From Escherichia coli (lineage in GTDB: Bacteria > Pseudomonadota > Gammaproteobacteria > Enterobacterales > Enterobacteriaceae), in the NCBI RefSeq assembly GCF_050920415.1, contig NZ_CP169309.1: a stretch of 64,000 nt of DNA; one strand, 5' to 3'. The first letter of the stretch is position 1, and every line of letters starts with the position of its first letter. Both the position numbers and the translations under genes were made by a program. Below, in pieces: positions 2,544 through 60,372 of this stretch. The notes under the pieces are model-generated. The model was not told the origin of the DNA. It saw only the letters and a list, made by a program, of their open reading frames with translations, and did no database searches.

Positions 2544-3593
2544 TTACATCAATGGCTTTTGCCCCCGCTGCCACCAGCGTAGCAACAATCGATCAGCGCT
2601 CTCTGCCGCGCTGCCGGTGAATCGGTCAATGAGTCGTTTACGCTGCATATAGCGTACATTGACCACTTCACGGCCTTCCATCAGGCTAAGAATAACTTCA
2701 TCACTGGTGTTGATTTCATCAACCAGGCCTTTCTCTACCGCCTGTTGTCCGTACCAGTGTTCACCCGTTGCCACCTGTTCAATATCCAGAGACGGACGCA
2801 TACGCTTCACAAAATCTTTAAATAACTGATGCGTTTCGTTCAGCTCTTCGCGGAATTTCTCCCGCCCTTCTTCGGTGTTTTCACCCAGCAAGGTCAGCGT
2901 GCGCTTATACTGCCCGGCGGTGTGCAGTTCGATATCAATATCTTTGCTTTTCAGGAAGCGGTTAAAGTTGGGCATTTGCGCCACCACCCCAATGGAACCC
3001 ACAATAGCAAACGGTGCGGAAACAATTTTGTCCGCCACACAGGCCATCATGTAACCGCCGCTGGCAGCAACTTTGTCTACCGTAACAGTTAAAGGAATGT
3101 TTTTATCACGCAGACGCTGCAGCTGCGAAGCCGCCAGCCCGTAACCATGCACCATGCCACCAGGGCTTTCCAGACGTAGCACAACCTGATCCTGCGGTTT
3201 AAATGCTGCGAGTACCGCCGTTATCTCTTCACGTAGCGAGTTCACTTCATGGGCGTCCATGCTGCCTTTAAAATCCAGCACCCAGACGCGAGGTTTACTG
3301 TCAGTTGCCACCTCGCCCAGTTTGGCTTTCGCTTTTGCGGCTTTCGCTTCTTGCTTGTGCTTTTTCTTCTGCGCTTTATGCCACTGTTTTTGCTGATGAG
3401 TGTCCATCAGCGCCGCGGCCAGTTCTTCTTTCATCTCCTTATACTGTTCGCTGAGATTGTTGACCCGTAACTCGCCACGCTGGCGTTTATTACGTTGAGC
3501 AACATTGACAATAATGGCGGCAATCGCCGCAATCGCTAGCACAACGGTAACGATTTTCGCCAAAAACAAACCATATTCAGACAACAATTCCAC
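2544..3593 (-). CDS. sohB: Inner-membrane peptidase SohB (S49 family)
   Basis: 349-aa ORF with N-terminal membrane helix and S49 peptidase-like body; conserved position. Confidence 0.88.
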   Translation of the reverse strand: MELLSEYGLFLAKIVTVVLAIAAIAAIIVNVAQRNKRQRGELRVNNLSEQYKEMKEELAAALMDTHQQKQWHKAQKKKHKQEAKAAKAKAKLGEVATDSKPRVWVLDFKGSMDAHEVNSLREEITAVLAAFKPQDQVVLRLESPGGMVHGYGLAASQLQRLRDKNIPLTVTVDKVAASGGYMMACVADKIVSAPFAIVGSIGVVAQMPNFNRFLKSKDIDIELHTAGQYKRTLTLLGENTEEGREKFREELNETHQLFKDFVKRMRPSLDIEQVATGEHWYGQQAVEKGLVDEINTSDEVILSLMEGREVVNVRYMQRKRLIDRFTGSAAESADRLLLRWWQRGQKPLM

Positions 3594-5158: not shown

Positions 5159-5162
5159 GGGA

Positions 5163-5195
5163 AAGCACCTCAAAAGATCGCCTCTTGAGGTGCTT
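5163..5195. terminator. Hairpin shared by convergent btuR and the 102-aa ORF
   Basis: Perfect 11-bp inverted repeat aagcacctcaa / ttgaggtgctt with 11-nt loop; U-rich flank readable on both strands. Confidence 0.5.
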
Positions 5196-5210
5196 TAATC
5201 ATAATTATAT

Positions 5211-5519
5211 TCAAGCGGCAATAGCAAAACTCAGAATCCGTTTAATCTCATTCAAATGTCCCGGATATGCTTCATGATTCTCAGCGTCAACATCTTCAAT
5301 AAATAATATCAGTTCAGTAATTAACGCATTGGCATCTTCATAACTGATTCCGCTTAACTCTGGCGAAGTTTCAGTACCGTAGTTAATCGTCAGATTGTTC
5401 ATCACCGTGAGGATAAGGATAAAATATTTATGACAAACCTTGCAAGTGGTTTTGTTGCCCAGAGTATTATACAGCATATCAAGTAATGCCAGTATTCTAC
5501 GGTTTTGTACATCGTTCAT
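5211..5519 (-). CDS. Hypothetical 102-aa protein, no signal peptide; second gene of an AT-rich two-gene operon
   Basis: Strong AGGAGG Shine-Dalgarno about 8 nt upstream of ATG; starts 13 nt after the upstream ORF stop; AT-rich codons; no family recognised. Confidence 0.55.
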   Translation of the reverse strand: MNDVQNRRILALLDMLYNTLGNKTTCKVCHKYFILILTVMNNLTINYGTETSPELSGISYEDANALITELILFIEDVDAENHEAYPGHLNEIKRILSFAIAA

Positions 5520-5531
5520 AAAAAGCCCCTC

Positions 5532-6533
5532 CTATAACATTATTCCGCTGGCAATAAGTAATTTCGCCAGCCCCTCAGACGCCTTTAACCCACTAATGAC
5601 CTGTGCGCGTAATATTTCATTTAATCTGTTTTGTTCAGCTGCCGTGCGTGTTTTATTAGTGTATAAACCTTTTAGATAATCACCCTTATCTATAAAGGCA
5701 TTTAAAGCTTCAATCGCGGGCATTGCAGCAGCCGATGCCTGTAGTCTGGTTTCATTCACATTGATTACTGAACTTAGAAACTCCTTCCTGTTTTTCAGAG
5801 TGTTAAACTCTGTATTCTTAGAGTTTTTAGATACCGCATTATAATAAAGCATATTATTATGTACATTCGCAAAGGTATAATTTTCAATCTTATCGCCTTT
5901 TGTATAAATATCATTACGCAAAACAGTCATGTTTTTTATAAGTCTTACCCAATTTTTATCCGCCGTTTTACCTATTTTCCCAGCATTGACCTTTATTATA
6001 TATAACTCGTTGAAATAACTTACTAAATCTTTAACTGCCGCTGCCGATTCAGCTAAATCTTTGCTATGTGAAACATCAAGTAGTGTTTGCGCGTTGTTTG
6101 CGTGATCCAGAGCCTGTTTAAGTAATGTCACTTGCTGACTTTCTGTAGTTTTTATGTCTTCAGTCAAGAGCTCTACATAAGCACTCATGCTATTAATGAC
6201 TTCCATTGAAGCCAGTAGTTTCTCTTTTTCGAATGGGACTAATTGTACTTTATCTGTTTTTTCTTCAGGGGGCCTGCATAATTTTCCACCCTGACCATCG
6301 TTCGCAACATCAATGGTATAATCAGGTCGCAATGCACAATCCGGATTAGTCGCATAAAAATTAACAAGGAAGTTTTCACGAGAAGCATAGTATTGTTTAA
6401 AGAAACTTGCATTCGCCGCAACCGCCTTGTTACCCGCAGTAATAACAGTTTCAGCTTGCTCATTTTTCAATGCTTCAGTTGCACAACCTGAAAGCATTAA
6501 CAGCGATAGAAATAATCCACTATATCTAATCAT
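5532..6533 (-). CDS. Hypothetical lipoprotein (333 aa)
   Basis: N-terminus MIRYSGLFLSLLMLSGC is a signal peptide with lipobox L-S-G-C; +2 residue Ala predicts outer-membrane sorting; GAGGTG Shine-Dalgarno upstream; AT-rich; Asn/Lys-rich, probably helical; no family recognised. Confidence 0.6.
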   Translation of the reverse strand: MIRYSGLFLSLLMLSGCATEALKNEQAETVITAGNKAVAANASFFKQYYASRENFLVNFYATNPDCALRPDYTIDVANDGQGGKLCRPPEEKTDKVQLVPFEKEKLLASMEVINSMSAYVELLTEDIKTTESQQVTLLKQALDHANNAQTLLDVSHSKDLAESAAAVKDLVSYFNELYIIKVNAGKIGKTADKNWVRLIKNMTVLRNDIYTKGDKIENYTFANVHNNMLYYNAVSKNSKNTEFNTLKNRKEFLSSVINVNETRLQASAAAMPAIEALNAFIDKGDYLKGLYTNKTRTAAEQNRLNEILRAQVISGLKASEGLAKLLIASGIML

Positions 6534-6660
6534 AACCCACCTCTTGACGTTGAGTTTATCTCAGATAATTAAATAGTAATGTGGCTATTCCCTGGCATTA
6601 TTCATAAGCAAGTATGAAATTAAATTAAAATACTGCGACTATTTATCATGCTTCAAATGA

Positions 6661-6687
6661 AGAAAAGGCCCCGCAGGGCCTTTATTT
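6661..6687. terminator. Bidirectional hairpin terminator downstream of rluB
   Basis: ggccc-cgca-gggcc stem-loop flanked by A-run upstream and T-run downstream. Confidence 0.6.
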
Positions 6688-6702
6688 AATACTTAACTTA
6701 AA

Positions 6703-7578: not shown

Positions 7579-7678
7579 AGAGCTTCCTTTTGGTGTCGCC
7601 TTCCCAGGCGTCGAACAGGAGAATCAATGGCGCAGTAGAGCGCCATTTTAAGGCCGCGTAGTATACAGAGTTAATCAC

Positions 7679-8299
7679 TTATAAAAAAGGCTTCACATCA
7701 CCTACACCTTCACGCAATACGACTGGCGTATCATCGGTGAGATCAATAACCGTTGTCGGTTTCTGCCCGAGATAGCCGCCGTGAATAATCAAATCCACCT
7801 GTTTTTCCAGACGGTCTTTAATTTCTTCCGGGTCAGACTCGGTAAATTCGCTGCCAGGTAGCATCAGTGATGTGGAAAGCATCGGTTCGCCCAATGCTTC
7901 AAGCAACGCCTGCGCAATCGGGTTAGAAGGCACACGCATACCGATGGTTTTGCGTTTTTCCTGCAACAGACGGCGTGGCACTTCCTTCGTCCCCTTCAGG
8001 ATGAAAGTGTAGTTACCCGGCGTATTGTTTTTCATCAAACGAAACGCAACGTTATCGACAAATGAATAGGTCGAGAGTTCAGAAAGATCGCGACACATCA
8101 GGGTAAAGTTGTGACCGTCCGGCAGCTGGCGAATACGACAAATACGCTCCATGGCGTTTTTATCTTCAATTTTACAGCCGAGCGCATAGCCGGAATCAGT
8201 TGGATAAACAATCACCCCGCCTTTACGCACGATCTCCACCGCCTGGTTGATCAGACGTTGCTGCGGGTTATCAGGATGAATATAAAAAAACTGGCTCAT
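7679..8299 (-). CDS. yciO: Sua5/YrdC-family protein YciO (206 aa from MSQFFYIHPDNP)
   Basis: Start at the internal ATG gives the known 206-aa length; ATGA overlap with the trpH stop. Confidence 0.85.
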   Translation of the reverse strand: MSQFFYIHPDNPQQRLINQAVEIVRKGGVIVYPTDSGYALGCKIEDKNAMERICRIRQLPDGHNFTLMCRDLSELSTYSFVDNVAFRLMKNNTPGNYTFILKGTKEVPRRLLQEKRKTIGMRVPSNPIAQALLEALGEPMLSTSLMLPGSEFTESDPEEIKDRLEKQVDLIIHGGYLGQKPTTVIDLTDDTPVVLREGVGDVKPFL

Positions 8300-9177
8300 A
8301 ATTCCCTCTCTGTGGTGTTCTGCGGCTGTTCCCATAGCTGCCAGACGCCTTCAACGCCTGCGGGCAGCCAGAGTTTACGACCCAGTTCGATCCACGGGCA
8401 TGGCTGATGAAAATCAGATCCTTGTGATGCCCATAAATGGTGCTGGCGGGCAAGCGTCGCCAGTTGGGTGCGTTCATTGGGCGATTGCTGGCACTGCGCG
8501 ACTTCCATCGCGTCGCCGTGGTGTTCGGCAAAATGCGCAACCAATCTTTTCAGCCATTTAGCACTAAGATTGTACCGCCCAGGATGAGCAAGCACTGCCT
8601 TACCGCCAGAATGATGAATGACATCAATAGCTTGTTCTATTGTACACCACTGTGGCGGAACGTATCCGGTTTTCCCGCGTGCCAGATATTTTTTAAAGAC
8701 ATCCGCTATTGAACTGGCTTTGCCACATTCAACCAAGAAACGCGCAAAATGACCGCGCGTCACCGCACCGCCCTGCGCCAGTCGTTGCGCGCCTTCCAGC
8801 GCCCCAGGTATTTGCGCTTTTTCAAGTCTTTCGGCAATTAACTTCGCCCGCTGATTGCGCCGTTCTGTCTGCTGCGCGAGGAACTCACTCATTGCCGAAT
8901 GTGCAATATCAATATTCAGCCCGACAATATGAATTTCATGATTTTCCCAGACGGTGGATATTTCCACGCCAGGAATAAGATTCAGTGCCAGTCCTGAACG
9001 TGAAATTTCTTCTCTTGCTGGCGCGATTGCCGCTGTGGTGTCATGGTCGGTGATCGCCAGGGTGCCGACGCGCATCTCGACTGCACGGTGCACCAATGCT
9101 TCTGGCGTCAGGCAGCCATCGGAAGCTGTGGTATGGCTGTGCAGGTCATAAATCACTGCGTAATTCGTGTCGCTCAA
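8296..9177 (-). CDS. trpH: PHP-domain phosphoesterase TrpH/YciV (293 aa if started at TTG)
   Basis: HSHTTASDG PHP motif; track ORF runs to 9258 but a TTG at codon 28 gives the known 293-aa length. Confidence 0.8.
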   Translation of the reverse strand: MSDTNYAVIYDLHSHTTASDGCLTPEALVHRAVEMRVGTLAITDHDTTAAIAPAREEISRSGLALNLIPGVEISTVWENHEIHIVGLNIDIAHSAMSEFLAQQTERRNQRAKLIAERLEKAQIPGALEGAQRLAQGGAVTRGHFARFLVECGKASSIADVFKKYLARGKTGYVPPQWCTIEQAIDVIHHSGGKAVLAHPGRYNLSAKWLKRLVAHFAEHHGDAMEVAQCQQSPNERTQLATLARQHHLWASQGSDFHQPCPWIELGRKLWLPAGVEGVWQLWEQPQNTTEREL

Positions 9178-9251
9178 GGCGCACTCCCGTTTTGGATAAT
9201 GTTTTTGCGCCGACATCATAACGGTTCTGGCAAATATTCTGAAATGAGCTG

Positions 9252-9280
9252 TTGACAATTAATCACCGGACTAGTTAACT
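9252..9280 (+). promoter_or_regulatory. trp promoter: -35 TTGACA, 17-bp spacer, -10 TTAACT
   Basis: Sequence gttgacaattaatcaccggactagttaact read directly. Confidence 0.85.
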
Positions 9281-18383: not shown

Positions 18384-18737
18384 ATCCGCTCCGTCGTTAT
18401 GGTTATAAAAACGTGACGAATATACCCACATTGGAGTAACAAATGATCCTACACAGATCACATTATATATGATAATTCACCCTTTATTGATCTGGATTAA
18501 TTTAGAAGTTGCACTGTGAATCCTGGTTAATGTGATTTAAATCAATTCCTATATATTTCACTACGCAAACATTAACTCGCTCGCCACTTGCTGCGGTTTG
18601 CCCATAGCTTAGACCCGCAATTACCTCCGCTTTACAAAGATATGCTTTTCCATACAAGACCTGATGCTGCCACCCGAGGCTTAACCAGGGTACAATTGCC
18701 CGCTAATTAACACCTGCATAAAACTCAAGGAGAGTGC

Positions 18738-21312: not shown

Positions 21313-21535
21313 TGAAGTCATAATCATTTCAGCAGAAAAACCAGGCCTCGATTTTAAATGCAAATAGCAATCATATTCAATAAGGCAAGACGATCAGGAT
21401 CAGTGAAAATGTCATTTTTGGCGTAATTGACCTTACTTTATGCATGGTCTTAACAAAGACATCATCTTTCCGTTGCAGATCTTCGCCCTTTCAAATAACG
21501 TACTTTACAACTTTCCCGAACAAGGAGTTGTGCCC

Positions 21536-21832
21536 GTGTTGTATGTTATTTACGCTCAAGACAAAGCTGATAGCCTCGAAAAACGCCTTTCCGTTCGTCC
21601 GGCACATTTAGCACGTTTACAGTTACTGCATGATGAAGGTCGATTGTTGACCGCCGGTCCAATGCCAGCAGTAGACAGTAACGATCCAGGGGCTGCGGGA
21701 TTTACTGGCTCAACCGTTATTGCTGAATTTGAATCGCTGGAAGCAGCTCAGGCCTGGGCCGATGCTGACCCGTACGTGGCGGCAGGAGTCTATGAACACG
21801 TTTCAGTGAAACCATTTAAGAAAGTGTTCTGA
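21536..21832 (+). CDS. yciI: YciI-like protein (98 aa, GTG start)
   Basis: GTG preceded by AGGAG; gives the known 98-aa length; track ORF begins further upstream at 21440. Confidence 0.75.
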
Positions 21833-22132
21833 ATAGAGATTCAATATTTAAGGGCACGGTTTTAGCAACCGTGTTCTAGTTTGGCCTTTCCTTATAGGTC
21901 TGTCAGTGCATTCACCCCCACAAGCAGATAATAACTTTATCTGTATTTCTTTATATGATGTGAGCATATTCAGGAAAAATGCCCTTTCCTGACGCAGAGT
22001 TGCTCACTCAAAACCTTTGATTACTTCAGATAAAGTCATCTACTATTGTTTAACACATTCACGTGCTGCATGTATGTTCAGAAAATGTGCACGTTGAGAT
22101 AATTAAACAAAATTGTGGTTACAGAGGTATCA

Positions 22133-23386
22133 GTGAGTCACTGGACTACATTCAAACAAACAGCAACAAATTTATGGGTGACCCTACGGCACGACATTCT
22201 CGCGCTGGCCGTCTTTTTAAATGGATTGCTTATTTTTAAAACAATCTATGGTATGTCGGTCAATTTGCTTGATATTTTCCATATCAAAGCCTTTTCAGAG
22301 TTAGATCTCTCCTTGCTGGCAAATGCCCCACTCTTTATGCTCGGCGTCTTTCTTGTCCTGAACTCCATTGGCTTACTGTTCCGGGCAAAGCTCGCATGGG
22401 CAATCAGTATCATTTTGTTGTTGATAGCGCTAATTTACACCCTGCATTTTTATCCCTGGCTGAAATTTAGTATTGGATTTTGCATTTTTACGCTGGTGTT
22501 TTTGCTGATACTGCGCAAAGACTTCTCCCACAGTAGCGCCGCAGCCGGGACAATTTTCGCATTTATTAGTTTCACGACGTTACTGTTTTACTCCACCTAC
22601 GGTGCGCTTTATTTAAGCGAAGGTTTTAATCCGCGAATAGAAAGTTTGATGACCGCGTTCTATTTTTCGATAGAAACCATGTCAACCGTCGGCTATGGCG
22701 ATATTGTCCCTGTTTCTGAATCAGCACGATTGTTCACTATTTCGGTCATTATTTCCGGCATTACCGTTTTTGCCACCTCCATGACTTCAATTTTTGGTCC
22801 GCTTATCCGCGGGGGATTCAACAAACTTGTAAAAGGAAAAAATCATACAATGCATCGTAAAGATCATTTTATTGTTTGCGGGCATTCGATTCTCGCCATC
22901 AATACGATTCTGCAACTGAATCAACGCGGACAAAATGTAACGGTTATCAGCAACTTGCCTGAAGATGATATCAAGCAACTTGAGCAACGCTTAGGTGATA
23001 ACGCTGATGTTATCCCCGGTGACAGTAATGACAGTTCAGTATTAAAGAAAGCAGGAATCGATCGATGCCGGGCCATTCTGGCGCTGAGTGATAACGATGC
23101 TGATAACGCGTTTGTTGTACTATCGGCAAAAGATATGAGCAGTGATGTCAAAACAGTTCTCGCCGTCAGTGATAGCAAAAACCTGAATAAGATTAAGATG
23201 GTACATCCGGATATCATTCTCTCGCCGCAACTGTTTGGCAGCGAAATTCTGGCACGAGTTTTAAATGGTGAAGAGATTAATAATGATATGCTCGTTTCAA
23301 TGTTGTTGAACTCCGGTCATGGTATTTTCAGCGATAACGATGAACAAGAAACGAAAACTGACAGCAAAGAATCGGCGCAAAAATAG
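22133..23386 (+). CDS. kch: Voltage-gated K+ channel Kch (417 aa, GTG start)
   Basis: Selectivity filter TVGYGD and RCK/TrkA-like C-terminal domain; GTG at 22133 gives 417 aa. Confidence 0.85.
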   Translation: MSHWTTFKQTATNLWVTLRHDILALAVFLNGLLIFKTIYGMSVNLLDIFHIKAFSELDLSLLANAPLFMLGVFLVLNSIGLLFRAKLAWAISIILLLIALIYTLHFYPWLKFSIGFCIFTLVFLLILRKDFSHSSAAAGTIFAFISFTTLLFYSTYGALYLSEGFNPRIESLMTAFYFSIETMSTVGYGDIVPVSESARLFTISVIISGITVFATSMTSIFGPLIRGGFNKLVKGKNHTMHRKDHFIVCGHSILAINTILQLNQRGQNVTVISNLPEDDIKQLEQRLGDNADVIPGDSNDSSVLKKAGIDRCRAILALSDNDADNAFVVLSAKDMSSDVKTVLAVSDSKNLNKIKMVHPDIILSPQLFGSEILARVLNGEEINNDMLVSMLLNSGHGIFSDNDEQETKTDSKESAQK

Positions 23387-31961: not shown

Positions 31962-32609
31962 TTAATTAAGCAGGCCGGGGAAAATCCCCTTAATACCAGT
32001 AACGATAAATTCAATCCCCAACGCCATCAGCAATAGCCCCATAATACGCGTAATCACGTTGATGCCGGTCTGGCGTAAAACCCGTACCAGCCACGGTGCC
32101 ATGCGGAACAATCCCCAGCAGCATAAAGCAAACAATGCAATAGCCACAAAGAAACCAAATAGATAGCTAATACTGTGATAACGCGTACCCCAGACGATGG
32201 TGGAACTAATCGCCCCTGGCCCCGCCATCAACGGCAACGCCAACGGCACCACACCAATGCTTTCACGTACCGCGGTTTCTGATTTTTCTTGCTTGTTCTG
32301 TTTATCCTCGCCAAGCTTGCCGCTGATCATCGACATCGCTATTGTCACCACCAGGATGCCACCGGCGATACGGAATGAATCAATTGATATACCAAAAAGT
32401 TGCAGAATCGTGTCGCCGAGAAAAAGCGAGATCCACAAGATAATGGCCACAGACAGGTTGGCTGTAAGGTTCGTTTTGTTTCGCGCTGCCGCTGTCTGAT
32501 AACTGGTCATGCTGATAAAGACGGGAATAATCCCTACCGGGTTGACCAGCGCAAATAACCCGATGAAAAATTTGAAGTAAACGGGAAAATCAAAAAGGGT
32601 CTGAATCAC
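31962..32609 (-). CDS. ychE: MarC-family inner membrane protein YchE
   Basis: 215-aa hydrophobic protein recognised as YchE. Confidence 0.85.
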   Translation of the reverse strand: MIQTLFDFPVYFKFFIGLFALVNPVGIIPVFISMTSYQTAAARNKTNLTANLSVAIILWISLFLGDTILQLFGISIDSFRIAGGILVVTIAMSMISGKLGEDKQNKQEKSETAVRESIGVVPLALPLMAGPGAISSTIVWGTRYHSISYLFGFFVAIALFALCCWGLFRMAPWLVRVLRQTGINVITRIMGLLLMALGIEFIVTGIKGIFPGLLN

Positions 32610-40962: not shown

Positions 40963-41074
40963 TATTCCCGCAAGATTCCCCTGGAATGCAATCGTAGCAA
41001 CATCGCTACTGCTCGGTTAACATAGTGCTACTCAGGCGGTTAATACGCCGTTATTGTTTCCAGGGAGATTATTT

Positions 41075-41533
41075 GTGTCTCAGCTTTGTCCCTGTGGTAG
41101 TGCTGTCGAGTATAGCCTATGTTGCCACCCTTATGTGTCTGGTGAAAAGGTTGCACCTGATCCAGAACATCTCATGCGTTCGCGTTACTGCGCTTTTGTG
41201 ATGCAAGACGCAGATTATTTAATAAAGACCTGGCATCCATCTTGTGGAGCGGCGGCGTTACGTGCCGAATTGATTGCCGGATTTGCGCATACTGAATGGT
41301 TGGGATTGACCGTATTTGAACATTGTTGGCAGGACGGCGACAATATCGGATTTGTCAGTTTTGTTGCTCGATTTACCGAAGGTGGCAAAACAGGCGCCAT
41401 AATTGAACGTTCACGATTTTTGAAAGAAAACGGTCAATGGTACTATATTGACGGTACACGTCCGCAGTTTGGCCGCAACGCTCCCTGCCCTTGTGGTTCA
41501 GGTAAAAAATTTAAAAAGTGCTGCGGCCAATAA
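41075..41533 (+). CDS. ychJ: SEC-C motif protein YchJ (152 aa, GTG start)
   Basis: CPCGS metal-binding motifs at both ends; GTG start matches known length. Confidence 0.8.
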
Positions 41534-42585: not shown

Positions 42586-42670
<85 letters not shown>

Positions 42671-42704
42671 TCTCAAGCATTACATCAAAATTTGAATTAT
42701 CCCT

Positions 42705-42789
<85 letters not shown>

Positions 42790-43501
42790 TCACTTTCAAA
42801 AGTTCCTGAAATCCCCAACAAATCCACAATTAAATATTCTGCCCATGCGGGGAAGGATGAGAAGCTTCGACTAAGGTTCGACTCGAGCGCCAGCGAGAGA
42901 GCGTTGCCGCAGGCAACGACCCGTAGGGCGAAGCGCGCAGCGCTGAGTAATCCTTCCCCCACCACCATCACTTTCAAAAACCCCTGTATTCTCCAACGAA
43001 TCCGTAACTGAATATTCTGCCCATGCGGGGAAGGATGAGAAGCTTCGACTAAGGTTCGACTCGAGCGCCAGCGAGAGAGCGTTGCCGCAGGCAACGACCC
43101 GTAGGGCGAAGCGCGCAGCGCTGAGTAATCCTTCCCCCACCACCATCACTTTCAAAAACCCCTGTATTCTCCAACGAATCCGTAACTGAATATTCTGCCC
43201 ATGCGGGGAAGGATGAGAAGCTTCGACTAAGGTTCGACTCGAGCGCCAGCGAGAGAGCGTTGCCGCAGGCAACGACCCGTAGGGCGAAGCGCGCAGCGCT
43301 GAGTAATCCTTCCCCCACCACCATCACTTTCAAAAACCCCTGTATTCTCCAACGAATCCGTAACTGAATATTCTGCCCATGCGGGGAAGGATGAGAAGCT
43401 TTGACTAAGGTTCGACTCGAGCGCCAGCGAGAGAGCATTGCCGCAGGCAACGACCCGTAGGGCGAAGCGCGCAGCGCTGAGTAATCCTTCCCCCACCACC
43501 A
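42790..43501 (+). repeat. Four tandem 178-bp direct repeats (rtT region), each ending in the last ~19 nt of tRNA-Tyr
   Basis: Unit boundaries 42790-42967, 42968-43145, 43146-43323, 43324-43501; copies 2-4 near-identical, copy 1 diverged at its 5' end; each ends ccttcccccaccacca. Confidence 0.9.
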
Positions 43502-54894: not shown

Positions 54895-56352
<1,458 letters not shown>

Positions 56353-56871: not shown

Positions 56872-57567
56872 TCAGGCGAATCCCGGCCGTAACACACCAT
56901 CCGGATAATTCTCCGCCAGCAGTTTTTTTACCGATACCAGCAAATCATTCAGCCCATCGTCCTGCATTCCCAGTTTGATAAGCTCCTGTTCCAGTGAAAA
57001 CAGGTATTGTGCGTTGGTTCCCAGTGGACCGCTCGCCGCCGCAATCAACGGCGCGATGACCTGAGCGCGAGTGTCAGATTCATATTCCGGATGTCGCGGG
57101 TCCATAATAAACACAATGGCGTTTACTGTGCGTCCATCATCAAGATCAAGCTGACACCAGGTTGGCAGATAACAGCCGGTAATCATCTCGCGCTTCCACA
57201 ACAGGGTTAGTTCCTGCTCCAGCGTCTCTTCTGGCAGTCGATAGGCGACGCCTGTGGTGCGTCCGCCCTCTTTCAGTGCAAGCATCCGTCCCGGCTGGTG
57301 CGCAGTCCCGCGCCCGGCGGTCAGGCGCAGGCAAAACGCGCGATGCCATCCAACCAGTGTACCGGTGCACGACTCGGTAAACTCCAGTGCCGGATTCCAC
57401 ATCAACGATCCATAACCGAAGATCCACACCGGTCCCTCATCAGGTCGACAAGCCAGCGTCGCCGCCAGCGAAGCCGCCCGTTGCTCTGCTGACCATAAGA
57501 GTGATTCTTCAATGGCACCAAATGCCGTTTTACAATCGGCATTCATCAAGAAATCACGCGTTATCAC
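56872..57567 (-). CDS. chaC: Glutathione-specific gamma-glutamylcyclotransferase ChaC (231 aa, GTG start)
   Basis: ChaC motif FGYGSLMWNP; GTG at 57567 gives the known 231-aa length; track ORF extends to 57603. Confidence 0.8.
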   Translation of the reverse strand: MITRDFLMNADCKTAFGAIEESLLWSAEQRAASLAATLACRPDEGPVWIFGYGSLMWNPALEFTESCTGTLVGWHRAFCLRLTAGRGTAHQPGRMLALKEGGRTTGVAYRLPEETLEQELTLLWKREMITGCYLPTWCQLDLDDGRTVNAIVFIMDPRHPEYESDTRAQVIAPLIAAASGPLGTNAQYLFSLEQELIKLGMQDDGLNDLLVSVKKLLAENYPDGVLRPGFA

Positions 57568-57723
57568 CTTACACCTCCGCCACTGCATACTTCCCTGCGA
57601 CAACTTTTTGGTGTCTTCCGGACATTTTACTGCTCATTTTGAAACCATTAACGGGACAATATGCAATCCACGGACCACTTGCAAGGCAACACCGCACGAA
57701 TAGCTTTAACTAAGCTACCGGTT

Positions 57724-59729: not shown

Positions 59730-59837
59730 ATGACGCTCGCGCAGTTTGCCATGATTTTCTGGCACGACCTAGCGGCACCGATCCTGGCGGGGATTATTAC
59801 CGCAGTGATTGTCAGCTGGTGGCGTAACCGGAAGTAA
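59730..59837 (+). CDS. ldrA: Type I toxin Ldr, 35 aa (MTLAQFAMIFWHDLAAPILAGIITAVIVSWWRNRK)
   Basis: 35-codon ORF read directly; matches the LdrA sequence; below the ORF-track size cutoff. Confidence 0.85.
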   Translation: MTLAQFAMIFWHDLAAPILAGIITAVIVSWWRNRK

Positions 59838-60264
59838 GGTGAAAACGGGCGTCAGGCTGCCGTGATGGCAATATGCGCCCGAAACCGGCCGCAGGGGTAA
59901 CAGCCTGCGGCCCTTTTTGTCTTTATCTCTTCTGCAAGTAAATATTGGCAACCCGAGCTGGAAGCATCATCCAGAGCACTCATGAAACGACTGTAACAGC
60001 TGTTGAAAAACCGGAATGCACTCTTCATTGCAAACATTTCAGGGATGAAGTGAAGATGAATTGAGACGTAGTATCCACACCAAGCCGGAGTTATCCGGTG
60101 AGGCGCAATGTTGCGGGGGCTCTATCCCTGGTGGCATTGGTTGCTGGAAAGAGAAAACCCCCGCACGTTGAGAGGTACAACCTGACAACAGAACGGGGGC
60201 TAATCTTGAAACCAGACACTTCAAGAATAGCCGCAAAATGTTGTCATTACAACAAGGCGGCTAT

Positions 60265-60372
60265 ATGACGCTCGCGCAGTTTGCCATGACTTTCTGGCAC
60301 GACCTGGCAGCACCGATCCTGGCGGGAATTATTACCGCAGCGATTGTCAGCTGGTGGCGTAACCGGAAGTAA
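60265..60372 (+). CDS. ldrB: Type I toxin Ldr, second copy, 35 aa (MTLAQFAMTFWHDLAAPILAGIITAAIVSWWRNRK)
   Basis: Same architecture 535 bp downstream; two amino-acid differences from copy 1; paralogue assignment tentative. Confidence 0.8.
   Translation: MTLAQFAMTFWHDLAAPILAGIITAAIVSWWRNRK

Follow-up and report, generated by a model that had tools for sequence, protein, structure and literature searches.

Canonical initiation at near-cognate codons in E. coli is exemplified by lacI and cra, which start with GTG, and by rpsT, which starts with TTG; in these genes, a codon positioned by a Shine-Dalgarno (SD) sequence is read as fMet. AUG initiates translation more efficiently than GUG or UUG. 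According to the published baseline, 14% of E. coli starts are GUG and 3% are UUG, and a published table lists Met-initiated peptides for rpsT and cra, as well as for yciI, one of the five genes analysed here. The GTG of lacI has a regulatory role (PMC11445065), and none comparable is known for these five genes. Annotated starts have also been revised over time. For instance, when the K-12 annotation passed from U00096.2 to U00096.3, chaC lost 21 nt at its 5' end as its start was reassigned from an ATG to a downstream GTG, a change confirmed by TetRP (Nakahigashi 2016). The K-12 protein records of yciI, chaC and ychO carry version.2, which indicates that they were revised.

The window, a 64,000-nucleotide stretch of E. 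coli DNA, represents a lineage that is divergent within the species, with ~96% identity to most strains. The PGAP annotation used here is that of NZ_CP169399.1 (E. coli MFDS1022581), which is 100% identical to the window. A sequence-only reading had claimed that five genes reach their known lengths only from non-ATG codons, and all five codons were verified: TTG 9177 (minus strand) in trpH, GTG 21536 in yciI, GTG 22133 in kch, GTG 41075 in ychJ and GTG 57567 (minus strand) in chaC. The corresponding products of 293, 98, 417, 152 and 231 residues, respectively, are identical in length and start codon to those of rnm, yciI, kch, ychJ and chaC in K-12 (NC_000913.3), and PGAP assigns the same five starts on the identical genome. 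These GTG/TTG starts are normal for E. coli and are already known from the curated K-12 record and RefSeq. Their biological weight is small, as such starts are textbook knowledge, and the practical value of the analysis lies in annotation quality.

Non-ATG codons open 8 of the 62 complete CDSs annotated by PGAP in the window (6 GTG and 2 TTG), matching the genome-wide proportions of 14% and 3%. About 10.5 are expected from the baseline (binomial two-sided p = 0.5), and this test ruled out an excess of such starts over chance. The list in the sequence-only reading, correct for its five genes, had missed the other three, sohB, ychE and ychO. The GTG starts of sohB (2544-3593, minus strand, GTG 3593, SD −7.5 kcal/mol) and ychE (31962-32609, minus strand, GTG 32609, SD −5.8 kcal/mol) are annotated by PGAP and in K-12, and neither gene has an in-frame alternative start upstream of this codon. 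Upstream in-frame alternatives also occur in 13 of the 54 ATG-started genes of the window.

Anti-SD pairing at the five starts ranges from −6.4 to −10.8 kcal/mol and is in each gene the strongest among the in-frame candidates; the scoring of ribosome-binding sites, proposed earlier as a check, thus favours the annotated start in all five cases. SD elements lie 4-7 nt upstream of the start codon and are kept across genera. A conserved start position, an SD and a non-coding upstream frame, three of the features by which near-cognate starts are recognized, were found in all five genes, the kch frame being assessed at the protein level. Pfam boundaries are consistent with the short forms. INRI-seq, an in vitro approach, identified the annotated translation initiation site (TIS) of all five genes and revealed no in-frame upstream TIS in kch, ychJ and chaC, the templates of which include the upstream candidates. 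The INRI-seq comparison table gives an in vivo Ribo-RET value of 0 for each of the five genes, and direct in vivo evidence is therefore limited to chaC (TetRP) and yciI (N-terminal peptide). The initiation data called for by the sequence-only reading are accordingly at hand in part, and trpH, kch and ychJ are covered in vitro only; we infer that the annotated starts of these three genes are used in vivo.

Taken together, these data make us highly confident that the five GTG/TTG codons are genuine initiation codons and that the upstream frames are non-coding leader or promoter DNA. The SD would set the 30S subunit on the near-cognate codon 4-7 nt downstream, and decoding of GTG or TTG by fMet-tRNA would yield a protein beginning with Met, a mechanism that does not differ from canonical near-cognate initiation. 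The longer upstream frames would be stretches of leader or promoter DNA that lack an in-frame stop by chance.

Longer frames are indeed present in the ORF list, as had been noted: 320 residues for trpH (8296-9258, minus strand, from TTG 9258), 130 for yciI (plus strand, from ATG 21440), 423 for kch (plus strand, from GTG 22115), 159 for ychJ (plus strand, from TTG 41054) and 243 for chaC (minus strand, from TTG 57603). The frequency of extended forms was determined by exact-sequence look-ups in a collection of 15 billion proteins, in which the 320-residue trpH and 243-residue chaC forms have no match. Gene calls from Logan, ENA, JGI and older GenBank records often include ATG-extended forms of trpH, yciI and chaC: the 238-residue chaC and the 130-residue yciI forms each occur in at least 1000 contigs, and the trpH allele of the window is found as a 307-residue form in 489 contigs and as a 293-residue form in 654. 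Extended kch (423 residues, 26 contigs) and ychJ (159 residues, 34 contigs) are rare, and in both genes the sole upstream alternatives are non-ATG codons too. The expectation that automated annotation would mis-start these genes therefore holds for trpH, yciI and chaC in public calls, but not for PGAP; this homology-guided pipeline is free of all five extension errors, unlike gene finders that favour ATG codons or longer ORFs. The trpH, yciI and chaC calls resemble the spurious N-terminal extensions that such gene finders are known to produce. ATG-extended entries in protein collections can distort N-terminal analyses, clustering and construct design.

The abundance of these calls would also fit a different reading, according to which the upstream ATGs are real or additional starts, giving rise to proteins of 307 (trpH, in this lineage), 130 (yciI) and 238 (chaC) residues, and the non-ATG starts are conventions copied from K-12. 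Moreover, INRI-seq templates extend ~30 nt in the 5' direction from the annotated start, and thus include neither the ATG ATG of trpH nor ATG 21440 of yciI. We consider this reading very unlikely, as the upstream ATGs of trpH, yciI and chaC lack a usable SD, and comparative data, reported below for each gene, argue against their use.

The trpH gene (rnm/yciV; 8296-9177, minus strand; TTG 9177-9175; 293 residues in PGAP and K-12) encodes a protein that is predicted to open MSDTNYAVIYDLHSH... and shares 286 of 293 residues with K-12 Rnm; the PGAP/RefSeq name is RNase RNM/AM. Judging from its sequence, the product is an RNase AM, as suggested by the PHP domain, the N-terminal H-x-H motif and the orthology to YciV. 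RNase AM (TrpH) is a PHP-domain 5'-3' exoribonuclease, the function of which is described in PMC7261194. The Pfam PHP domain (PF02811, E = 5.4e-9) starts at residue 38 of the 320-residue ORF, corresponding to residue 11 from TTG 9177. In all 80 Enterobacteriaceae species compared, the homologous codon is likewise TTG. The SD of the gene, GGGAG (9184-9188, minus strand; −6.9 kcal/mol), lies 6 nt upstream of the TTG and provides the best anti-SD pairing among in-frame candidates, while both upstream ATGs score 0; 74 of the 80 species share a core that reads GGGAG, GGAG or GGAA. The TTG that opens the 320-residue ORF (9256-9258, minus strand) shows weak SD pairing (−3.0 kcal/mol) and is not a start. 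Opposite to it, the plus strand reads TTGACA (9252-9257), the −35 element of the trp operon promoter.

The extended frame is not typical of trpH in general; it results from a 1-nt leader indel that is specific to this lineage and that the sequence-only reading had not reported. A run of five A residues (9202-9206, minus strand) carries a 1-nt deletion relative to the A6 run of K-12 and other Escherichia representatives, and this deletion places the ATG ATG, as well as TTG 9258, in the trpH frame. In K-12, an in-frame TGA occurs at −14 codons and there is no upstream candidate start; similarly, the Escherichia representatives L005-L009 have A6, and their upstream frame is closed by a stop 14 codons before the TTG. 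Across the species sampled, upstream in-frame stops are found at −5 to −34 codons, and the ATGs are out of frame in most of them. The exact 71-nt leader haplotype of the window, carrying A5, is found in 9 of the 5,417 E. coli records with a match; strain 2013C-4282 is one that has the A5 allele. The ambiguity of the trpH leader is thus an addition in this lineage to the ambiguities known from the K-12 re-annotation, where it is absent, and the dependence on a 1-nt indel in an A run of a rare lineage sets the trpH extension apart from the general error of gene finders. The gene offers a clear example of how a 1-nt homopolymer indel in non-coding DNA creates a plausible longer ORF, and of how comparative data resolve the error.

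The tandem in-frame ATG ATG (9219-9214), chosen by ab initio callers as the trpH start, overlaps the hexamer TATGAT (9215-9220, minus strand), which a promoter scan predicted as a −10 element, and would really be part of this hexamer. A −10-like hexamer located 35-40 nt from the trpH TTG is found in 76 of the 80 species, as TATGAT (51 species), TATCAT (20) or TATTAT (5). Variation to TATCAT and TATTAT is as expected of a −10 element and destroys the ATG in the corresponding species. The predicted −35 element, TTCAGA (9238-9243, minus strand), is separated from the −10 hexamer by a 17-nt spacer, and TTCAGA, TTCAGT or TTTAGA occurs at this spacing in 66 of the 80 species. On average, the −35 hexamer agrees with TTGACA at 3.56 of 6 positions, versus 2.38 for the coding-sequence background. 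The scan yielded 1 hit versus 0.6 ± 0.8 in shuffled sequences, a result that alone is not significant. Among the Cappable-seq entries examined, none is a transcription start site (TSS) at the place predicted for trpH, whether by the coordinates of U00096.3 or by those of U00096.2, and the genes are not named in the supplements of SMRT-Cappable-seq. The conservation pattern points to a putative sigma-70 promoter, TTCAGA-17 nt-TATGAT, with a predicted TSS at about 9210-9204 (about 1323186-1323191 in K-12). The A5 deletion (9206-9202) would then lie at the 5' end of the trpH transcript, fusing the ATG ATG into frame, and the ATG ATG itself is probably upstream of the TSS and hence outside the mRNA.

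In the A5 lineage, transcripts begun upstream of the normal promoter could in principle be translated from the ATG ATG, yielding a lineage-restricted RNase AM proteoform with a 14-residue extension. Antisense transcription through the trp leader region is a possible source of such transcripts. If true, the extension would directly precede the catalytic H-x-H motif; we regard this as very unlikely, and initiation at TTG 9177 remains the preferred reading.

The yciI gene (21536-21832, plus strand; 98 residues in PGAP and K-12) starts at a GTG preceded by the SD AAGGAG (21522-21527, plus strand; −8.0 kcal/mol), and neither element varies among the four genera compared. Klebsiella and Enterobacter lack the upstream ATG, and the upstream frame is interrupted by 1-nt indels. 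The N-terminal position is common to 5/5 orthologs. An N-terminal peptide maps to the GTG 21536 start (PMC13245402); being Met-initiated, it proves initiation at this codon. Upstream of the gene, TTGCAG and TAACGTAMT are conserved and promoter-like in appearance, and the promoter scan returned no hit on that strand.

The chaC gene (56872-57567, minus strand; 231 residues in PGAP and K-12) has the strongest SD, GGAGG (57578-57574, minus strand; −10.8 kcal/mol). Its GTG is kept in the six genomes compared, while the upstream ATG (57588) is confined to the two E. coli genomes; in K. aerogenes, the upstream region features an in-frame TAG TAG just before the start. Homologs beginning at the GTG position account for 85 of 120. 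TetRP data place initiation in vivo at the GTG, 21 nt downstream of the ATG annotated in 2006 (PMC4909307). The signal at the GTG is 18.8, 12.9 and 15.1 in the three samples, versus 0, 8.4 and 0 at the old ATG (PMC4909307); some signal at the ATG is seen in a single replicate, and the GTG signal is higher in all three. A coding upstream peptide, suggested by the similarity of QWRRCK and QWWRYR, was ruled out by the conserved SD block, the unconserved ATG and the in-frame stops of K. aerogenes.

Some genes might instead start downstream, at an internal ATG such as chaC ATG 57546 (MNADCK...). Some chaC orthologs are called at 224-226 residues from the internal Met, six representatives open MKADC..., and the K. 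aerogenes ChaC protein P0386 is annotated at 226 residues. In contrast, the residues that precede the internal Met in the GTG-started form, [IL]TRDFL, are conserved at the protein level in 85/120 representatives and in the six genomes, the internal ATG lacks an SD, and both TetRP and INRI-seq peaks fall at the GTG. The downstream candidates of trpH, kch and ychJ also lack an SD, and starting there would cut into conserved domain residues. Downstream initiation is very unlikely, and GTG 57567 is retained as the chaC start.

The kch gene (22133-23386, plus strand; 417 residues in PGAP and K-12) has a GTG start with the SD AGAGGT (22123-22128, plus strand; −6.4 kcal/mol), versus −2.7 kcal/mol for the alternative GTG 22115. 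INRI-seq at GTG 22133 gave RPF values of 95-218 on a template that also bears the upstream GTG. Because kch is absent from the yciI-neighbouring locus in C. koseri, K. quasipneumoniae and E. hormaechei, its upstream frame was compared by N-terminal protein alignment; in that alignment, the column of GTG 22133 is also where 15 of 18 distant homologs of Kch begin. The ychJ gene (41075-41533, plus strand; 152 residues in PGAP and K-12) features the SD GGGAG (41063-41067, plus strand; −8.2 kcal/mol). The position homologous to its start codon is occupied by GTG or TTG across five genera, 103 of 120 homolog representatives begin M-[ST]-x-L-CPCG, and the Salmonella gene has an in-frame TAA at −8.

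The start of lowest certainty in the window is TTG 56289 of ychO (54895-56289, minus strand; 464 residues in PGAP and K-12), which has a weak SD (−3.6 kcal/mol) and no INRI-seq signal. A 1-nt indel in the window brings an upstream codon, ATG 56325, into frame, and K-12 has no upstream candidate. In the 15-billion-protein collection, the 476-residue form occurs in 32 contigs, versus 95 for the 464-residue form.

The codons that the sequence-only reading had assigned as non-ATG starts are all present: TTG 9177 (minus strand) for trpH (rnm, yciV), GTG 21536 for yciI, GTG 22133 for kch, GTG 41075 for ychJ and GTG 57567 (minus strand) for chaC. Translation from them yields proteins of 293, 98, 417, 152 and 231 aa, respectively, the lengths of the K-12 rnm, yciI, kch, ychJ and chaC products, and the K-12 start codons are identical. 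A mechanical ORF list opens all five frames further upstream, with longest ORFs of 320, 130, 423, 159 and 243 aa in the same order. Since codons, lengths and longer frames are all as stated, the observation is correct. The start assignments of all five genes are correct and already known, and the NCBI pipeline (PGAP) annotation of this genome reports the same five starts. Five such starts are nothing unusual for E. coli. PGAP annotates non-ATG starts in 8 of the 62 complete CDSs of the window (6 GTG, 2 TTG); at the reported E. coli start frequencies (GUG 14%, UUG 3%; 10.1101/063800), approximately 10.5 are expected versus 8 observed (binomial p = 0.5). sohB (GTG 3593), ychE (GTG 32609) and ychO (TTG 56289, minus strand) were missing from the original list.

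Ribosome-binding-site scoring, a check proposed along with the claim, was performed as pairing with the 16S rRNA 3' end for every in-frame ATG, GTG or TTG from the upstream stop to 40 codons downstream. The annotated non-ATG codon is the best site in all five genes. Shine-Dalgarno (SD) sequences are GGGAG in trpH (−6.9 kcal/mol, spacing 5-6 nt), AAGGAG in yciI (−8.0 kcal/mol, 7 nt), AGAGGT in kch (−6.4 kcal/mol, 4 nt), GGGAG in ychJ (−8.2 kcal/mol, 6 nt) and GGAGG in chaC (−10.8 kcal/mol, 4 nt). The 16S pairing score detects no SD upstream of the in-frame trpH ATGs, and weak ones at the upstream ATGs of yciI (−1.5 kcal/mol) and chaC (−3.1 kcal/mol). Pfam boundaries fit the short forms; position 2 of the YCII profile corresponds to residue 2 of the 98-aa yciI protein.

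Published initiation data bear on all five genes. In the TRAINSPOTTER N-terminomics study (PMC13245402, Table S1), yciI is listed as a database translation initiation site (TIS) with a GTG start and Ribo-RET and INRI evidence, and a peptide spanning residues 1-17 begins at the GTG. N-terminal peptides were another check proposed, and a methionine encoded by GTG directly proves that initiation takes place at this codon. TetRP (PMC4909307, Table S2) places chaC among the genes whose start departs from the one annotated in 2006: it moves 21 nt downstream to a GTG, matching the 2014 annotation, and signals are 18.8/12.9/15.1 at this GTG versus 0/8.4/0 at the old ATG. INRI-seq (PMC9825163, Table S2) identified the annotated TISs of chaC, ychJ, kch, yciI and yciV in vitro, and the in vivo Ribo-RET values listed beside them are 0 for all five genes. 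INRI-seq templates begin approximately 30 nt upstream and thus cover the upstream candidates of kch, ychJ and chaC, for which no in-frame upstream TIS was reported (PMC9825163), but not the tandem ATGs of trpH or the ATG of yciI.

INRI-seq Table S3 also lists an out-of-frame GTG approximately 8 nt upstream of the annotated yciV and chaC starts, inside the SD (9183-9185 and 57573-57575, respectively, both on the minus strand). The peaks measure 30 and 83 RPF in two of five replicates, and the yciV peak exceeds the annotated TTG (6-15). The trpH out-of-frame GTG is not conserved outside Escherichia. Footprint offset noise is one possible source of these signals, very short overlapping ORFs another.

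Scanning one genome per GTDB species retrieved 80 orthologous trpH loci, from Escherichia to Klebsiella and Buttiauxella, encoding proteins of 77-98% identity. The homologous codon is TTG in each of the 80 Enterobacteriaceae species, with a GGGAG, GGAG or GGAA core ahead of it in 74. Conservation does not extend to the upstream frame: in-frame stops lie at any distance from 5 to 34 codons before the TTG, and an in-frame ATG between such a stop and the TTG is present in just 26 of the 80 loci. In K-12, an in-frame TGA lies 14 codons upstream, with no alternative start. The window strain has five adenines at 9206-9202 (minus strand), whereas K-12 and other Escherichia representatives have six; this 1-nt deletion brings two tandem ATGs (9219-9214) and the TTG at 9258 into frame, producing the 320-aa ORF to which the coordinates of the original observation (8296-9258) correspond. 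The exact 71-nt leader haplotype is found in only 9 of 5,417 matching E. coli records. Eleven others, sampled across the ranking, align at 97%, the subject being one base longer in the full-length ones.

A promoter scan found a single sigma-70-like site on the trpH strand (TTCAGA at 9243-9238, a 17-nt spacer and TATGAT at 9220-9215), the tandem ATGs forming the core of the predicted −10 hexamer. Across the 80 species, this hexamer reads TATGAT (51), TATCAT (20) or TATTAT (5), 35-40 nt from the TTG, and the predicted −35 (TTCAGA/TTCAGT/TTTAGA) lies at exactly 17-nt spacing in 66. Invariant T-A-...-T positions around a variable middle one are as expected of a −10 element, and this variation destroys the ATG. 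Transcription would be expected to start at approximately 9210-9204; the transcript would then exclude the tandem ATGs, and the first start codon it contains would be TTG 9177. No experimental trpH transcription start was retrieved from published data, and the promoter is a predicted one. The TTG opening the longest ORF (9258-9256) sits opposite TTGACA at 9252-9257 (plus strand), which we take to be the −35 of the trp operon promoter. The long trpH ORF is a rare-lineage artefact of a 1-nt indel adjoining a predicted −10 element, the one detail that goes beyond the original observation.

Comparative evidence extends to the other genes. Two E. coli strains, C. koseri, K. quasipneumoniae and E. 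hormaechei share an unchanged yciI GTG and AAGGAG; the last two lack the upstream ATG, and the frame is interrupted by 1-nt indels. Between this ATG and the GTG, TTGCAG and TAACGTAMT blocks (21473-21507) are conserved across four genera and may represent the yciI promoter, in which case the transcript would not include ATG 21440; on the yciI strand, no promoter was called here by the consensus scan. kch is missing from this locus in C. koseri, K. quasipneumoniae and E. hormaechei. In an N-terminal alignment of 18 Kch homologs, including proteins annotated as Plesiomonas, Shewanella, Aeromonas, Vibrio, Photobacterium, Endozoicomonas and Enterovibrio, 15 start at exactly the E. coli MSHW column, and none has a counterpart of the 6-residue extension. 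For ychJ, M-[ST]-x-L-CPCG is the N-terminus of 103 of 120 cluster representatives. At the homologous codon, E. coli and C. rodentium carry GTG, and Salmonella, Kosakonia and K. oxytoca carry TTG, the kind of switch expected of an initiator codon; in Salmonella, an in-frame TAA lies 8 codons upstream. Similarly, 85 of 120 chaC representatives begin M-[IL]-TRDFL. Six genomes retain the chaC GTG; of these, only the two E. coli ones have the upstream ATG, and in K. aerogenes the stretch separating the SD from the GTG contains an in-frame TAG TAG. The apparent likeness of some extended chaC calls (QWRRCK/QWWRYR) does not reflect an upstream coding peptide; it results from in-frame translation of the conserved SD block GGCGGAGGT.

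Exact-sequence look-ups in a 15-billion-protein collection, counting contigs per form, delimit the warning that automated annotation would mis-start these genes. For chaC, the 231-aa and the ATG-started 238-aa forms occur on at least 1000 contigs each and the 243-aa form is absent; for yciI, the 98-aa and ATG-started 130-aa forms each occur on at least 1000, the 100-aa form on 14 and the 119-aa form on 5. For the window allele of trpH, the 293-aa form occurs on 654 and the ATG-started 307-aa form on 489, the 306- and 320-aa forms being absent. Extensions of kch (423 aa, 26 contigs; 417 aa, at least 1000) and ychJ (159 aa, 34; 152 aa, at least 1000) are scarce. The warning is therefore right in part: it applies to ab initio calls in genes that have an upstream ATG (trpH, yciI and chaC), and not to kch, ychJ or PGAP.

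ychO resembles trpH in that a 1-nt difference from K-12 (an indel) brings an upstream ATG (56325) into frame with its start at 56289 (minus strand), and the 476-aa form is found on 32 contigs versus 95 for the 464-aa form. The ychO TTG has a weak SD and zero INRI-seq signal (PMC9825163); a typical signal peptide starts right at it.

All five genes would use standard SD-directed initiation at near-cognate codons. Published reporter assays put initiation from GUG and UUG at 10-100% of that from AUG, and hence the translation rates of the five genes are probably modest. The invariance of the trpH TTG (80/80) contrasts with the GTG/TTG alternation at ychJ across genera. Selection on start codons is a known phenomenon, and one may speculate that the TTG is maintained by selection for weak translation of RNase AM, a characterised 5'-3' exoribonuclease maturing rRNA 5' ends (PMC7261194).

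The window corresponds to 2810425-2874424 of the NZ_CP169399.1 chromosome (strain MFDS1022581) and spans the topA-trp-tonB-opp-adhE-nar-chaABC-prfA region, syntenic with K-12 MG1655 1.26-1.33 Mb in inverted orientation. A 1.9-kb piece around the trpH finding is 100% identical to NZ_CP169399.1 and approximately 96% identical to most other E. coli genomes. Protein look-ups named the same alleles in STEC_7v, 1.2741 and M863, which we take to be Escherichia cryptic clade I; membership would explain the divergence of the window. Between cobO and rluB, a low-GC islet (5160-6700; 33-40% vs ~52% in the flanks) carries two hypothetical genes (5211-5519 and 5532-6533, minus strand), neither of them matching Pfam or PADLOC; just 459 of 5,426 complete E. 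coli genomes contain at least 80% of the islet, and the copies are divergent (92%, 81%). yciQ (DUF2207, 1.9 kb), located between yciO and rluB in K-12, is absent, approximately 100 bp (7579-7678) separating the two genes. A YkgJ-family cysteine-cluster pseudogene fragment lacking its N-terminus (18621-18710), absent from the K-12 annotation, lies between ompW and yciC. At 42586-43501, tyrT and tyrV are 34 bp apart, followed by four annotated 132-nt RtT sRNA repeats with a 178-nt period; the K-12 annotation has 209 bp between the two genes and one rttR. Two Ldr type I toxin genes are annotated at 59730-60372; K-12 has three ldr/rdl copies (ldrA, ldrB and ldrC).
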